From the sequence record MT446401.1: a stretch of 52,344 bases of DNA. One strand, written 5' to 3'. This document shows positions 24,187-52,344 of the stretch, piece after piece; positions within the stretch are counted from its first letter, which is position 1, and every line of letters starts with the position of its first letter. Under the pieces are notes generated by a model, which had not been told where the DNA came from, did not search any database, and saw only the letters and a program-made list of their open reading frames with translations. Made by a program: the position numbers and the translations under genes. This DNA is from Escherichia virus TH27.

Positions 24187-24917
24187 TTAACGGCAAAATT
24201 AAGATGGCAATCTTCGAACATGCAAAATCAGTTTACCCCAATGAATGTTGCGGGGTGGTCACTCAGAAAGGACGAGTGCAAAAATACTGGCCTATTGACA
24301 ACGTTCACTCGGAACCGGAAAAAGGTTTTCAGCTTCATTCGGTACAGTACGCTTGCGTTGAGGATGACGCCGACCTAACTACAATCGCTATCGTCCATAG
24401 CCATACTGGCGACGGGGCCACCACTTTACCAAGCGCTCACGACCTGTGTATGTTAAACGAGATGGAAGTGCCATGGGTTATTGTAAGTATTCCGGAAGGT
24501 GATATGAGAATCGTTAACCCTGAAGCCATGCCTCTGATTGGTCGCCCATGGTCGCTCGGATCGTTCGATTGCTGGGGATTGGTGATGGCGTGGCACAAAG
24601 AACATGGCGTGATCCTGAATGACTTCCGAAAGCCTTACGAATGGTGGAAGCCTGAATATGGAGAGAATCTATACCAGGACAACTACATTAAGGAGGGGTT
24701 CGTTGAAACAGGAAAAGATCCAGAACCTGGTGATATGGTTATCATGAAACTACAGGCTGATGTGTGGAATCACGCTGGGATTTACCTTGGAAATAATCAA
24801 CTCCTTCACCACGCATTCGGTAAGCTGTCAAAGACGGATATTTACTCAGGCTGGTTCCAGGATCACACAGTTATGGTTTGCAGACATAAGGAATTAAAGA
24901 ATGAAATCATGCTCTAA
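24183..24917 (+). CDS. Tail assembly protein, lambda K-like (244 aa): JAMM/MPN plus NlpC/P60-like
   Basis: HSHTGDGATTLPSAHD metal-binding motif; C-terminal Cys/His; ATGA coupling. Confidence 0.8.
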   Translation: MINGKIKMAIFEHAKSVYPNECCGVVTQKGRVQKYWPIDNVHSEPEKGFQLHSVQYACVEDDADLTTIAIVHSHTGDGATTLPSAHDLCMLNEMEVPWVIVSIPEGDMRIVNPEAMPLIGRPWSLGSFDCWGLVMAWHKEHGVILNDFRKPYEWWKPEYGENLYQDNYIKEGFVETGKDPEPGDMVIMKLQADVWNHAGIYLGNNQLLHHAFGKLSKTDIYSGWFQDHTVMVCRHKELKNEIML

Positions 24918-25395
24918 GTGCGGAGAGGTTAAACCTCTAGATATGTTCTATAAAAATAGCGGTTGCGTTGGTGGATATAGGCATGACTGCAAGAGCTGCG
25001 CAAACAAAGCAAGAAAGATTGCTAGAAGTAGAGATATTGACACAACAAGGGAGTATGGTAGGAAGTATGCTAAAGAGTGGATTTCAAGAAACGCAGAGAA
25101 AACAAAAATGTATGGCTATGAAAAATTAGACAAAAAGAAAATCAGAGATAACGACCTTGATTTGGATTTTTGCATTAATGAAATGAAGAAGCCATGTATT
25201 TATTGTGGATTCACTGATAATCCATGTAACGGACTGGATAGAATTGATAATTCCATTGGTCACATAAAAGAAAACTGCGTACCATGCTGTCAGTTGTGTA
25301 ACGTAACAAGAATGGATAATTACTCACATCAAGAGTTCTTAGAATATATGGCTCCTGGTATAGTGGCGTTAAGAAAAAGTAGAGGTGAAATATAA
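24901..25395 (+). CDS. HNH homing endonuclease (164 aa) inserted between tail genes K and I
   Basis: Cys-rich zinc-ribbon segments, GLDRIDNSIGH...N motif; AT-rich relative to neighbours. Confidence 0.75.
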   Translation: MKSCSKCGEVKPLDMFYKNSGCVGGYRHDCKSCANKARKIARSRDIDTTREYGRKYAKEWISRNAEKTKMYGYEKLDKKKIRDNDLDLDFCINEMKKPCIYCGFTDNPCNGLDRIDNSIGHIKENCVPCCQLCNVTRMDNYSHQEFLEYMAPGIVALRKSRGEI

Positions 25396-49089: not shown

Positions 49090-49329
49090 TTATTTCACCT
49101 CGTCAAACGTTGCGATTCCAGGGATAAACATTCCGACCTTCCAGCCTGCGATAGCAATCCAGCCAGAATCGTGCTTGTGCGGTCGCTCAGCGCCATTAAT
49201 CACCCACTCGTTCGGGATTGTCTTACCGTTAATGATTAGCGGATCAGCGTCGTATACAGAGCCTTTTACGAATGGCGTTAAGACCTTCTTGTCGGTGCTG
49301 CTGATGCAATTTGTGCATATCACTTTCAT
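49090..49329 (-). CDS. Hypothetical protein (79 aa)
   Basis: ATGA coupling with upstream HNH gene. Confidence 0.65.
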   Translation of the reverse strand: MKVICTNCISSTDKKVLTPFVKGSVYDADPLIINGKTIPNEWVINGAERPHKHDSGWIAIAGWKVGMFIPGIATFDEVK

Positions 49330-49844
49330 AATTTACCGCCATGATTTTCGTTAAAGTTAAATATTTTATTTGCCTCATTCCTTGCGGCAACCGCATCATC
49401 AATGTTCTTAAATGTTCCAAGTTTGCGATTTACTCCATTACTAACAACTTGAGCAACAAAAACCTCATCTCTTTTACACCAATGTATTCCAGTGTGCCCG
49501 CTTTTATTGTCACTCCTGATTTTCTGGTTTTTTGCGTTACCTGATTTATCTGTCATTGATAGATTCTCTATCCTGTTATCATCCCTGATCTTGTTATTAT
49601 GGTCTATAACCTTGGTAACATCCGGTTGTCCTTTGAATATAAACCATACAATCCTATGAGCCGTGAATCTCTCGCCCTTGAATCCCACAAGCCTATATCC
49701 AGTGGCTTTACTTATGCAGCCACACTCCCTTCCTGTTCTATCTATTTGCTTTCTTGATGGTGGTGTTTTCTTCCAATAAAGCCTGCCGTCAATGTATTCA
49801 ATATAATCAACTATATCCTCCGGTATCTGCTTTGCTACTTTCAT
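49326..49844 (-). CDS. HNH-AP2 homing endonuclease (172 aa)
   Basis: YIDGRLYW..., HRIVW, IDHNNKIRDDNRIENL motifs; AT-rich; paralog of 33031 and 44399 genes. Confidence 0.75.
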   Translation of the reverse strand: MKVAKQIPEDIVDYIEYIDGRLYWKKTPPSRKQIDRTGRECGCISKATGYRLVGFKGERFTAHRIVWFIFKGQPDVTKVIDHNNKIRDDNRIENLSMTDKSGNAKNQKIRSDNKSGHTGIHWCKRDEVFVAQVVSNGVNRKLGTFKNIDDAVAARNEANKIFNFNENHGGKL

Positions 49845-49853
49845 GGTCTCGCC

Positions 49854-50069
49854 TTAGAACGGTATTCCGTCGTCAAATTTTAAGCGGTAGTCGAAGTCAT
49901 CCCCGATTCCGTCTACTGACTGGTTGCTTTCGCTTTCAAGATCCATATCCATAACGCCCAATGCGTCATCGAGTTCAATGCATCCGTAAGCAACCTTGAG
50001 CGCCCACTCTTCATTGAGTCCGGCTTTAAGTGCCGCGCGGTGGCGGCTCCAGAAATTATCTTGATGCAC
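49854..50069 (-). CDS. Small acidic protein (71 aa) ending in SSB-like tail FDDGIPF
   Basis: GTG start 3 nt after upstream stop with GGAG upstream; C-terminal DFDYRLKFDDGIPF-stop. Confidence 0.6.
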   Translation of the reverse strand: MHQDNFWSRHRAALKAGLNEEWALKVAYGCIELDDALGVMDMDLESESNQSVDGIGDDFDYRLKFDDGIPF

Positions 50070-50072
50070 TGT

Positions 50073-50297
50073 TTAGCTCCAGGAATTGATGTAAAGTGAG
50101 TTATCGTTTAACAGGTTAACCATCTCTGCGCTGGTGAGGCTACGGATGATTGCGCCCGGATGCGTGCCAACAACGTAGCGATCGAACTCACGGCGCGTGA
50201 TGGTGATTTGGCTAACGCCTGCGGAGCGGTCCAGTTTGATGATTGCACGGCCTTTGGCTTCGATGTGAGCGACTACGTTCTGAACTTTAACTGACAT
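50073..50297 (-). CDS. Hypothetical protein (74 aa)
   Basis: RBS AAGAGGAAG; preceded by about 185-nt leader with two direct repeats. Confidence 0.7.
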   Translation of the reverse strand: MSVKVQNVVAHIEAKGRAIIKLDRSAGVSQITITRREFDRYVVGTHPGAIIRSLTSAEMVNLLNDNSLYINSWS

Positions 50298-50328
50298 TTT
50301 TACTTCCTCTTAGGTTTTGATGTGGTTT

Positions 50329-50424
50329 TCGTTGCTCCGGCCTACGTTTGCAACTTCCTGCCTTGTGGGTTTGCCACATCGTTTTGAAACGTCTTTCGTT
50401 GCTCCGGCCTACGTTTGCAACTTC
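50329..50424 (-). repeat. Two copies of a 29-bp direct repeat (50329..50357 and 50396..50424) in the leader of gene 50073..50297
   Basis: tcgttgctccggcctacgtttgcaacttc occurs twice, 67 bp apart; each copy has gttgc/gcaac inverted repeat and TTGCAA. Confidence 0.8.
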
Positions 50425-50458
50425 TCACCCTTCGTGAGTGTTTCGTTTCGATGAAATG

Positions 50459-50501
50459 ATTATGCCTCAATCCGTGAGGCTTCGTTTAGCAATTCGTGCT
50501 A
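50459..50501 (-). promoter_or_regulatory. Palindromic box plus -10-like CATAAT (- strand) with CATCGAAACGAA leader
   Basis: Box 50485..50501 directly after stop of 50503..50934; hexamer complement 50459..50464; leader 50442..50453. Confidence 0.5.
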
Positions 50502-50502
50502 T

Positions 50503-50934
50503 TTACCGATTTTTCGGTGGGCGGCGAACATAAGCGTAAAACGGCGTCGGACCGATTGGCGGCTGATAACCAGTCAGGAGGCGATTACTTGCTTCCGTGG
50601 CGCGCGAAACTGCTACGTTCTGTTGAACGGCTGCCACCTGGCCTCGGCGGAACAACCGACTTTTGCTCATTCGTTGGTTAGTGCCACATAACTCCATATA
50701 CTGATAATCCCACGGATCGAGCGCAACTCTCTTATCCATGAACACCTTGCGGCTACTGGAAACGAACACCTTACTATCCTTTAGTCGTGCAGCGCGGCGG
50801 AACATCTTATACGTCGCCTCATGCATTTGAACCTTAAAGCGCCAGGCTCCGTAAGCCCAAATATACATCCGGAATGATGTCGTGACGAAGCGGGTAGTGC
50901 CGTCAGTGTGCTTGTAAATTACGCCGTGTTTCAT
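50503..50934 (-). CDS. Hypothetical basic protein (143 aa)
   Basis: ORF ending at palindromic box. Confidence 0.7.
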   Translation of the reverse strand: MKHGVIYKHTDGTTRFVTTSFRMYIWAYGAWRFKVQMHEATYKMFRRAARLKDSKVFVSSSRKVFMDKRVALDPWDYQYMELCGTNQRMSKSRLFRRGQVAAVQQNVAVSRATEASNRLLTGYQPPIGPTPFYAYVRRPPKNR

Positions 50935-50944
50935 TTGCCTTCCC

Positions 50945-51154
50945 TCAGATTAGTGAAATTTCGACGGTGATTTTCGCCTGACCAATTACCCGCGCACCGC
51001 CAGACAACAACGCGCATTCAATGATGTGCCCATCCATCGCGGTTGTTTGTGATGGCAGACCATCCACCATGCGGAAGATTTCGGACCGTGAGTTGTCGCA
51101 ACTGATCAGATACTCGTTGCCGCTCCCGATAAATTGCACAATGTCAAACATCAT
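50945..51154 (-). CDS. Hypothetical protein (70 aa)
   Basis: Start moved to ATG at 51154, which overlaps upstream stop (ATGA). Confidence 0.55.
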   Translation of the reverse strand: MMFDIVQFIGSGNEYLISCDNSRSEIFRMVDGLPSQTTAMDGHIIECALLSGGARVIGQAKITVEISLI

Positions 51155-51897: not shown

Positions 51898-51990
51898 ATT
51901 GCAATGATTCACTTCACTATTGCACATATAGCAATATTGCATCGTTTGCAATGATGTTTTCAATTGTTGCGAATTGAGCAATGATTCATT
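51898..51990. repeat. Cluster of TTGCAATGAT-like direct repeats spanning the start of the terminal repeat
   Basis: ttgcaatgattc, ttgcacatatagcaatattgcat, ttgcaatgatg, gagcaatgattc within about 90 bp; non-coding. Confidence 0.6.
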
Positions 51991-52344
51991 GATGGGGGGA
52001 ATGATGGGGTGAGATTCGATCCCATGATCGCCTGGTGGGATTTTCCCGCCACACATTTCATCTATGTACGCGTTATGGTTTGTTCAACTTTGTAGATATT
52101 TGGCAATGTCTACGCCATTCACGCGGAATTACGCGCTGGTTACAAAATAAATCCCTTATATAACAACCTTTTATCTATATTATTATTATTATTATTATTA
52201 TATGTTATTCCGTAACCAAGATTAATTGGGATATTGATGATATTTTTTTTGATATTGCGCGGCGCATGAAAATTGGCATAAAGAGATGGATATGCAAGTA
52301 GGGCAAAAAAGTGATGTACATCGTTCTACGGCAATAACATCCTT
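51943..52344. repeat. Right copy of 402-bp direct terminal repeat (matches 1..402)
   Basis: Visual comparison with 1..402. Confidence 0.85.

Follow-up and report, generated by a model that had tools for sequence, protein, structure and literature searches.

Introduction

Several protein-free RNAs of phages have been described, including the put RNAs of HK022, the c4 RNA of P1 and P7, the CI RNA of P4, and a number of anti-defense RNAs. Described here is a module that appears to work most like these RNAs and to be a member of none of their families. It is encoded in a 52,344-nucleotide (nt) stretch of DNA from Escherichia virus TH27 (sequence record MT446401.1), the whole of which is referred to as the window, and its most visible parts are two direct repeats of 29 nt that a preliminary description had placed upstream of a small gene of 74 amino acids (aa). 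The repeats are very probably the cores of two tandem three-way-junction RNA units, each ~65 nt in length, on the minus strand; a probability of about 0.85 is assigned to a structured RNA on this strand.

The put RNAs of HK022 (putL and putR) are cis-acting antiterminators. Like the module, they are folded RNAs of ~65-70 nt with two adjacent hairpins, they lie just downstream of an early phage promoter, they need no phage protein, and they are found in only some members of their group. The module differs from them in having a closing stem and an invariant 14-nt loop. Moreover, no terminators in need of read-through are evident in the operon of the 74-aa gene, for which no terminator is predicted until ~48,900. 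When the whole HK022 genome was searched, filters off, with the two covariance models of the module described below (R1 and R2), the best scores were 10-12 bits (E > 0.3), which is chance level, and no homology to put was found.

The nut sites of the lambda type (boxA and boxB) likewise combine a short hairpin, a conserved loop, and an early leader. The loop of the module is 14 nt long, however, rather than a GNRA-like pentaloop, and no gene for an N-like protein co-occurs with it; a search of the minus strand from 50298 to 50460 for a boxA sequence similar to GCTCTTTA gave no match. With Guanidine-II (mini-ykkC) and other tandem-hairpin or three-way-junction riboswitches the module shares tandem small hairpins, an ACG in the conserved loops, and conserved junctions joined to variable stems. 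Again, its loops are of 14 nt and are not ACGR tetraloops, no expression platform is visible, it has no consistent gene association, and it matches no family in Rfam.

The c4 RNA of P1 and P7 and the CI RNA of P4 are small structured RNAs that arise, as the module appears to, from the 5' leader of an early operon. They pair with complementary sites in their own transcripts, whereas the loop of the module has no complement in the window, and the C4 family of Rfam was not matched. The RNA anti-CRISPRs (CRISPR, clustered regularly interspaced short palindromic repeats), the pseudo-ToxI RNAs, and the phage tRNAs that counter anticodon nucleases resemble the module in being protein-free, early, patchily distributed, horizontally exchanged, and variable in copy number. 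In contrast to these, the module has no similarity to a host CRISPR repeat or antitoxin in Escherichia coli genomes and plasmids. Finally, the enterobacterial repetitive extragenic palindromic (REP) elements, in which GTAG precedes an imperfect palindrome of ~30 nt and which are present in many genomic copies, have a 10-nt string, GTAGGCCGGA, in common with the module, which otherwise contains neither the REP palindrome nor the complementary arm that follows it; the string lies in a hairpin loop, and E. coli genomes gave no BLAST match. This identity may be a coincidence or a clue to a partner. The loop may also resemble nucleotides 1296-1306 of 16S rRNA (CGUAGUCCGGA) and the sarcin-ricin loop, putative likenesses that we take as leads only.

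With Rfam 15 there was no match at E ≤ 10 in the window from 49800 to 51000, and none overlapping the motif at E ≤ 5 in six carrier loci. Searches of the literature by sequence string and keyword retrieved no description of the module, the catalogue of Fremin et al. (2023; PMC10690425), with its 10,006 candidate viral RNAs, lying outside this comparison.

Fold of the two units

The repeat, TCGTTGCTCCGGCCTACGTTTGCAACTTC, occurs on the plus strand at 50329-50357 and, 67 nt away, at 50396-50424. The two copies are exact, as the preliminary description had held, and they are the sole occurrences in the window; in dinucleotide-preserving shuffles of its sequence there were no matches even at three mismatches. 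The gttgc/gcaac inverted repeat and the TTGCAA palindrome said to lie inside each copy were found as well. The similarity reaches beyond the 29 nt, such that 50314-50357 and 50381-50424 are 89% identical over 44 nt. Both flanking open reading frames (ORFs) being on the minus strand, the region was analyzed as its reverse complement. The parts of the two units thereby delineated, together with the repeats, are as follows.

50386..50449, minus strand: RNA unit A, a three-way junction, from the minimum-energy fold (R1, 45.8 bits; R2, 50.1 bits)
50444..50449 with 50386..50391, minus strand: P0 of unit A, GAAACG paired with CGUUUC
50424..50438, minus strand: Pa of unit A, CUCAC-gaagg-GUGAG
50398..50421, minus strand: P1 of unit A, GUUGC-AAACGUAGGCCGGA-GCAAC, with the loop at 50403-50416
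50396..50424, plus strand: repeat copy 2, which comprises P1 of unit A plus flanks
50319..50380, minus strand: RNA unit B, a three-way junction (R1, 85.6 bits), with the same structure in the RNAalifold consensus
50374..50380 with 50319..50325, minus strand: P0 of unit B, GAUGUGG paired with CCACAUC
50355..50373, minus strand: junction of unit B with a mini-Pa, CAAACCCACAAGGCAGGAA
50331..50354, minus strand: P1 of unit B, GUUGC-AAACGUAGGCCGGA-GCAAC, with the loop at 50336-50349
50329..50357, plus strand: repeat copy 1, which comprises P1 of unit B plus flanks

In each unit, P0 is the closing stem, Pa is a variable hairpin, and P1 is a stem of five base pairs capped by a near-invariant loop of 14 nt, AAACGUAGGCCGGA. 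The consensus of the loop is AAR-CG-UAGRM-CG-DA, and in the folds two invariant C-G pairs are predicted within it, which close a UAGRM pentaloop. The strands of the junction are A-rich and conserved, the first reading AAACA, AAGCA, or CAAAC, the second AA, and the third GAAAA. A further palindrome reported between the repeats, cgttttgaaacg, is indeed present at 50381-50392 but is not conserved, being altered in phage OzMSK and absent from Salmonella phage SP-126; it is composed of the 3' strand of P0 of unit A and the linker that follows this stem.

The same three-way junction was obtained from RNAalifold, from the minimum-energy fold of the whole window leader, and from seven single-unit folds (units of six phages). 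The covariance models R1 and R2 were built from these unit alignments. When run over the window they returned exactly units A and B, with scores of 45.8-85.6 bits, and everything else scored at or below 12.5 bits. For unit B, an alternative hairpin, UGUGG-caaac-CCACA, was considered and set aside, for it is not kept in OzMSK, where P0 is kept through a compensatory change from G-C to A-U.

The units of the various carriers fall into two types. In type A units Pa is large (CUCAC/GUGAG in the window, CCCC/GGGG in SP-126, CGGC/GCCG in TS33, and AUCCA/UGGAU in K64-1), and both P0 and Pa of unit A differ in sequence, with pairing retained, in SP-126, TS33, and K64-1. In most type B units Pa is reduced to a CC/GG mini-stem within a conserved junction, CAAACCCAnnAGGnAGGAA, although the unit K64_2 has a Pa of five base pairs (CCCUU/AAGGG). 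Taken together, the type B junction and the 5' arm of P1 look like a ribosome-binding site and its spacer, on the basis of matching translation-initiation regions in another viral contig, and this may hint at the origin of the motif. In that contig (L201), the sequence AAACCCAAAAGAAAGGAAGG(C/T)AAAC..ATG at 1549-1580 and 2014-2045 is an ordinary translation-initiation region. A scan with the junction motif AAACCCANNAGNNAGGAAG likewise returned only ordinary ribosome-binding regions, such as those of L201.

Covariation and the strand of the RNA

The preliminary description had proposed folding and covariance analysis against related phages, and this comparison bore out a structured RNA. The arms of P1 occur as GUUGC/GCAAC, GCGGU/ACCGC, GCGGC/GCCGC, GCGGC/GUCGC, GGGGC/GCCUC, GCGGC/GCCGU, GUGAU/AUCAC, and GCGUU/AACGC, all of which are complementary. 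Indeed, P1 is 100% paired in 12 units as compared with 25-52% when the partners are slid, and four of its five pairs have changed on both sides. The outer helix P0 likewise covaries, examples being GAUGUGG/CCACAUC in the window, GAUGUGA/UCACAUC in OzMSK, GCCGGGG/CCUCGGC in F20, CUUCGGGG/CCUCGAAG in Shfl1, and GCCAGG/CCUGGC in SP-126. In the alignment of nine type B sequences, 98% of the cells pair as opposed to 35-44% upon sliding, 9 of 12 pairs are changed on both sides, and the covariation score was reached by none of 500 shuffles.

The strand can be assigned from the wobble pairs. In 16 units from ~10 phage lineages, with 201 base-pair cells, the strand in the sense of the genes has 191 Watson-Crick pairs, 9 G·U pairs, and a single mismatch. 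On the opposite strand the nine wobbles turn into A·C, and the number of mismatches rises to ten. Approximately seven of the nine wobbles are independent events, and the asymmetry is thus unlikely to have arisen by chance (~2^-7). In every carrier the motif has the same orientation as the gene downstream of it. The assignment of the RNA to the minus strand is based on the covariation, the wobble asymmetry, and this context rather than on folding energy. Of the possibilities listed in the preliminary description, a structured regulatory RNA leader or a small non-coding RNA is therefore supported in kind by covarying stems, by G·U pairs confined to the gene-sense strand, and by a position between promoter and gene. 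A small RNA on the plus strand, suggested by three terminator-like hairpins of that strand, is ruled out by the same asymmetry.

Within the loop, the positions that vary (3, 9, 10, and 13) correspond to the predicted pentaloop and internal loop, and the C-G pairs and CGUAG are invariant. This pattern would favor recognition of a fold over that of a linear seed.

A gene for a small protein was also considered and rejected, there being no conserved ORF over the module. One frame carries a TAG in the loop, and the other two have no in-frame start in most units. The spacings between copies (67, 69, 62, 70, 70, and 63 nt, or 1, 0, 2, 1, 1, and 0 modulo 3) also argue against coding. ORFs have been annotated in databases over the motif of Shfl1, ULIM2, VAC2, and K64-1, namely L014 1413-1643 (Shfl1p06), L015 1378-1587, L019 1459-1617, and L017 1458-1613 (K64-1 gp429). 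They disagree in strand and frame, and that of K64-1 begins inside a -10 element; these short ORFs are probably spurious.

The promoter and the leader

Upstream of the module lies a promoter cassette of a kind found repeatedly in the window. The relevant features, with those at the downstream end of the leader, are the following.

50485..50504, minus strand: conserved upstream box of the cassette, AAATAGCACGAATTGCTAAA, overlapping the stop codon of a 143-aa ORF; the same box, -10 element, and CATCGAAACGAA recur at least 12 times in the window
50464..50480, minus strand: variable cassette hairpin, GCCTCA-cggat-TGAGGC; other copies of the cassette have true terminator hairpins at this position
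50459..50464, minus strand: -10-like hexamer CATAAT, which aligns with the TATAGT, TATTAT, or CATAAT of other cassettes and of relatives
50295..50311, minus strand: Shine-Dalgarno sequence AAGAGGAAG (50303-50311) and ATG (50295-50297) of the 74-aa gene, which directly follow the promoter leader in CJ19 and TH21
50073..50297, minus strand: the 74-aa gene (phrog_4344), the first gene downstream, with no specific link to the module

The order of elements in the cassette is AATAGCAC-N4-5-TTG(C/T)TAAA, ~20 nt that often contain a hairpin or terminator, the -10 element (TATAGT, TATTAT, or CATAAT), CATCGAAACGAA, a ribosome-binding site, and ATG. Copies are present on both strands, for example at ~1573, 2343, 3658, 4912, 7112, 7740, 41000, 42314, and 44320 on the plus strand and at ~51870, 50500, 48940, and 30760 on the minus strand, and the box is conserved in 166 phage records. 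A palindromic TAGCA-N5-TGCTA box is positioned ~22 nt upstream of the -10 element; it could be a regulator site or an unusual -35 or UP element. The hairpin at 50464-50480 may serve as an end signal for the upstream gene. The -35 region of the promoter at 50459-50464 is poor, and a simple scan with the sigma-70 consensus missed it. Since the hexamer CATAAT fits the consensus of the cassette, transcription is predicted to start near 50452, in which case the two units would form the first ~135 nt of a transcript that runs into the 74-aa gene.

The 74-aa ORF itself was confirmed at the position given in the preliminary description. The long untranslated leader ascribed to it is also real, although its length of about 185 nt is revised to ~155 nt, from the predicted start at ~50452 to 50298. 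The gap to the upstream 143-aa ORF (50503-50934, minus strand), which includes the promoter, measures 205 nt.

Distribution and mobility

By BLAST and pattern scans, the module was found in ~13 isolates among 50,697 phage records. The carriers are T1-like phages, one Guernseyvirinae phage (TS33), and jumbo Klebsiella phages, all with hosts in the Enterobacteriaceae. Two copies are present in Msk and OzMSK, where they are 89% identical to the module of the window despite a different gene upstream, in Salmonella phage SP-126, and in Shfl1, ULIM2, and ECO104 4-5-2. The Klebsiella and Enterobacter phages F20, Solomon, and VAC2 and the Hafnia phage TS33 have one copy each, and the jumbo Klebsiella phages K64-1, RCIP0023, and Muenster have one canonical and one diverged copy. 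Pattern scans for the loop plus stem were extended to IMG/VR, the JGI metagenomes, and 185,579 species genomes (one genome per species). The only new viral contig to emerge was L117 from IMG/VR, with one copy; the JGI metagenomes and the species genomes yielded no further instance with a complementary stem. All other matches lacked such a stem and were discarded as chance matches in coding sequences or REP elements. No match to the module was returned by BLAST from 5,426 E. coli genomes or from 72,556 plasmids.

Pairs of related phages with and without the module are especially informative. In CJ19 and TH21 the same promoter leads after ~30 nt into the same ribosome-binding site and a 74-aa gene that is 90% identical, and no module intervenes. 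The window, by comparison, has ~125 extra nt between CATCGAAACGAA and AAGAGGAAG, and the repeats lie inside this insert. Model R2 found no copy of the module in the whole CJ19 genome or in the TH21 locus. Likewise, in an unrelated family, TS33 and Salmonella phage Ent1 have a common promoter (TTGCAA-17-TATAGT) and downstream gene, and a ~130-nt insertion with the motif is present only in TS33. Neither a target-site duplication nor terminal inverted repeats were found at the boundaries defined by CJ19 and Ent1.

In TS33 (L016), two further hairpins follow the motif at 1533-1605. The first has the form UAGCAGG...CCUGCUA and is followed by CUUUU; the second, GGGAAG-CCAAC-gccgcaaca-GUUGG, could be a second unit, degenerate and with another loop.

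In OzMSK (L001), a direct repeat of ~70 nt from the promoter segment brackets the module, at 1501-1560 and 1711-1770. This duplication of the promoter suggests that the module may move by recombination between promoter cassettes. In all carriers the motif lies downstream of a sigma-70-type promoter. That of K64-1, TTGACA-16-TATAAT, agrees with the consensus at 12 of 12 positions and lies ~10 nt before the unit, and a second strong promoter separates the module from the next gene. TTGCAA-17-TATAGT and TTGACG-17-TATCTT lie directly upstream in TS33 and L117, respectively, and in the window the promoter is of the cassette family. Because promoters flank or follow it in OzMSK and K64-1, the module appears to behave in these phages as a transcription unit of its own.

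The genes downstream are unrelated among the carriers, save that the window and the F20 group have homologues that are 37% identical. A role of the module specific to one gene is thus unlikely, for CJ19 keeps the promoter and the gene without the repeats, and the downstream genes of the other carriers are unrelated. The comparisons show the module to be an accessory and self-contained cassette that is exchanged horizontally between unrelated enterobacterial phages.

A protein partner was sought among those ORFs of the window that TS33 has and that CJ19 and Ent1 lack, and no co-occurring phage protein was found. The sole candidate was the ORF at 24901-25395, with a weak zinc-finger match and an HNH-like, endonuclease-like character, and it was judged irrelevant. 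This cysteine-rich ORF, on the plus strand and HNH-like by sequence, has no match in CJ19.

Genomic setting

The window is that of a T1-like siphophage of the Drexlerviridae, near Nouzillyvirus. The closest records are those of the Nouzillyvirus phages TH21, CJ19, and ESCO41, with flanking genes that are ~85-94% identical. The first 300 nt of the window recur exactly at 51943-52242, or 51,942 nt further on, so that it wraps around a genome unit of ~51.9 kb that is either terminally redundant or circularly permuted. Near the genome end (236-258 and 52178-52200) and in mid-genome (~31600), a repeat family of 80 nt (D2) contains an AT-rich (TTA)n microsatellite.

Among the proteins encoded on either side of the module, the only informative domain belongs to an HNH_3 endonuclease, encoded two genes downstream, which is itself an insertion or deletion relative to CJ19. 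Its ORF (49326-49844, minus strand; Pfam) is missing from CJ19 at the same position, and the only match of its product in that genome is to a paralogous AP2/HNH gene at another position. This ORF lies ~450 bp from the RNA module and is unlinked to it in other carriers.

Possible function and alternative explanations

At this locus lie two tandem copies of a mobile RNA motif, a three-way junction not described before, whose fold and distribution are both well supported. As for its function, the favored explanation, held tentatively and with a probability of 0.4-0.45, is that of a factor-binding accessory early RNA, which would act on a host RNA-binding protein or machine as its decoy, sponge, or modifier. 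The module would be transcribed by the host RNA polymerase immediately after infection. The invariant loop and junction of the folded RNA would then be offered to a conserved factor that Escherichia, Salmonella, Klebsiella, and Hafnia have in common, candidates being an RNase, the ribosome, RNA polymerase, an immune effector, or some other host RNA-binding protein or machine. The bound factor would be sequestered or redirected, and two copies could raise the avidity for a multimeric partner. The module would thus act as an RNA-only accessory element, or "RNA moron," within the leader or after processing from it, and not as a gene-specific switch. A common host factor, or else an intrinsic activity of the RNA, is indicated by the invariance of the loop and junction across phages of Escherichia, Salmonella, Klebsiella, Enterobacter, and Hafnia without dependence on any phage gene.

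Several points weigh against this account. The transcription start is a predicted one. Only ~10 independent lineages carry the module, and several of these are closely related. The folding energies (sense strand, z = -1.65; antisense strand, z = -2.0) are unremarkable taken by themselves and do not separate the strands. The factor-binding step is one that we infer from the pattern of conservation and the patchy distribution. Finally, in most carriers the module resides in the 5' untranslated region of the next gene, where it could affect the stability, translation, or elongation of the mRNA in cis.

This last point leads to the strongest of the alternatives, a cis-acting leader sensor. The module would be a riboswitch or a protein-operated aptamer, possibly a cooperative tandem, through which a host metabolite or factor would tune transcription elongation in the early operon or the decay or translation of its mRNA. 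Variable stems around a conserved junction and loop, in a three-way junction this small, are what is typically seen in aptamers, the position is always between a promoter and the first gene, and five carriers have tandem copies. Nevertheless, no expression platform is seen, there being neither a terminator nor pairing with the Shine-Dalgarno sequence beside P0 in the window, F20, SP-126, or Shfl1. In addition, the downstream genes are unrelated, CJ19 and Ent1 have the same promoters and genes without the module, a second promoter separates module from gene in OzMSK and K64-1, and Rfam contains no match. A sensor of this type is considered unlikely.

Less likely again is a role at the 5' end of the mRNA or in its processing. 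P0 could shield the 5' end from RppH and RNase E, the module could be a nuclease site, or it could be a new self-cleaving ribozyme that releases a stable downstream mRNA or an RNA of ~67 nt. Indeed, P0 of the first unit begins within a few nt of the predicted start in the window, OzMSK, and K64-1, and the size, the three-way-junction shape, and the conserved GAAA-type junction strand resemble those of small ribozymes. A plain stabilizer would have no need of an invariant 14-nt loop, however. Unit A of SP-126 lacks P0, and in F20, L117, and Shfl1 the unit begins 10-50 nt past the predicted start. With respect to a ribozyme, the module lacks the hammerhead core CUGANGA and matched none of the ribozyme families of Rfam.

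A trans-acting antisense RNA is an improbable third alternative. Its seed would be the loop, which might mimic the 5' end of REP or base-pair, within mRNAs, with the tail UCCGGCCUAC of the REP elements of the host. Enterobacterial REP elements have at their 5' end the very sequence GUAGGCCGGA of the loop, and in some copies AAACGUAGGCCGGA, as in the AAACGTAGGCCGGATAAGCG... of the Enterobacteriaceae genomes L069, L080, L083, and L089, an identity of 10-14 nt, and REP elements are very abundant in the Enterobacteriaceae that serve as hosts. In one IMG/VR contig (L008, IMGVR_UViG_3300037504_000385), three hairpins of the form ACGTA(A/G)GCCGGAC-AGCCAT-GTCCGGCC lie directly upstream of ribosome-binding sites on the minus strand, at ~12267, 12590, and 12761; they are REP-like repeats in which the GTAGGCCGGA string is also present. 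The loop variants, on the other hand, namely G9 to A in Shfl1, ULIM2, and TS33, GUAGAACGUA in K64_2, and GGCCGAA in L117, would place mismatches in the middle of a duplex with REP, and such variation is better explained by a folded loop than by a linear seed. With a motif as famous as REP, a match of 10 nt could be due to chance, and the rest of the window contains no complement of the loop.

More improbable still is an element that acts as DNA, whether the tandem operator for autoregulation proposed in the preliminary description or a pair of single-stranded-DNA hairpins that form the ends of a mobile element or a priming or nuclease site. The two identical sites are 67 bp apart and near a promoter, their presence or absence in relatives looks like mobility, and hairpins in single-stranded DNA also tolerate G·T pairs. 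Operators, however, conserve the sequence of their arms and not merely the complementarity. Here the arms vary freely (GTTGC, GCGGT, GCGGC, GGGGC, GTGAT, GCGTT) yet stay complementary, and it is the center that is conserved, which is the opposite of an operator. Three nested covarying helices would be needless in an operator of duplex DNA, and the sites lie downstream of the -10 element and the predicted start. CJ19 has the gene and promoter without the sites, and the downstream genes of the other carriers are unrelated. A mobile DNA element is disfavored by the boundaries with CJ19 and Ent1, which show no target-site duplication or terminal inverted repeats, by an orientation that always follows transcription, and by the absence of an accompanying transposase, HUH nuclease, or regulator.

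Hardly credible, lastly, is a mimic of a known immune RNA, be it the pseudo-antitoxin of a type III toxin-antitoxin system or a CRISPR-like unit, either a mini-array or a solitary repeat, in which the 29-nt repeat would be joined to a "spacer" of 38 nt. The sum of 67 nt does resemble a CRISPR repeat-spacer period, and the phages have one or two copies, pseudo-ToxI being likewise variable in copy number. Against such a mimic, BLAST gave no match among the E. coli genomes and plasmids, the "spacer" belongs to the fold and is itself conserved from phage to phage, copies recur at 62-70 nt rather than at the ~34-40 nt of head-to-tail ToxI repeats, which adjoin an endoribonuclease toxin gene, Tandem Repeats Finder reports no array, and no toxin domain was found in neighboring genes, a result that does not include a search with the PADLOC library.

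The favored factor-binding RNA can be extended to a bolder proposal, which is speculative and on the whole rather unlikely to hold in full. According to it, the module would represent a new class of protein-independent, horizontally mobile phage RNAs that act directly on the host, either as a decoy to disarm some immune or RNA-decay factor that binds RNA and is common to the Enterobacteriaceae or as a new small ribozyme or aptamer. It would be an "RNA-only moron" that lands behind the early promoters of unrelated virulent phages.

Significance

The T1-like coliphages are classic and heavily sequenced, and yet in public records the module is either unannotated or covered by short, inconsistent ORFs. 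At a minimum, the present analysis indicates that several database ORFs are probably spurious and provides a covariance model for annotating the module. It further describes a compact RNA with strong covariation support that appears to move alone between phage families and is placed behind the strongest early promoters, one of which, in a jumbo phage, matches the consensus perfectly. Should the module prove to be a riboswitch or a ribozyme, it would constitute a new class. If, instead, it binds a host factor as favored here, it would be a protein-free addition to the tools with which these phages take over the host early in infection or counter its defenses, and would offer a small RNA-partner pair.

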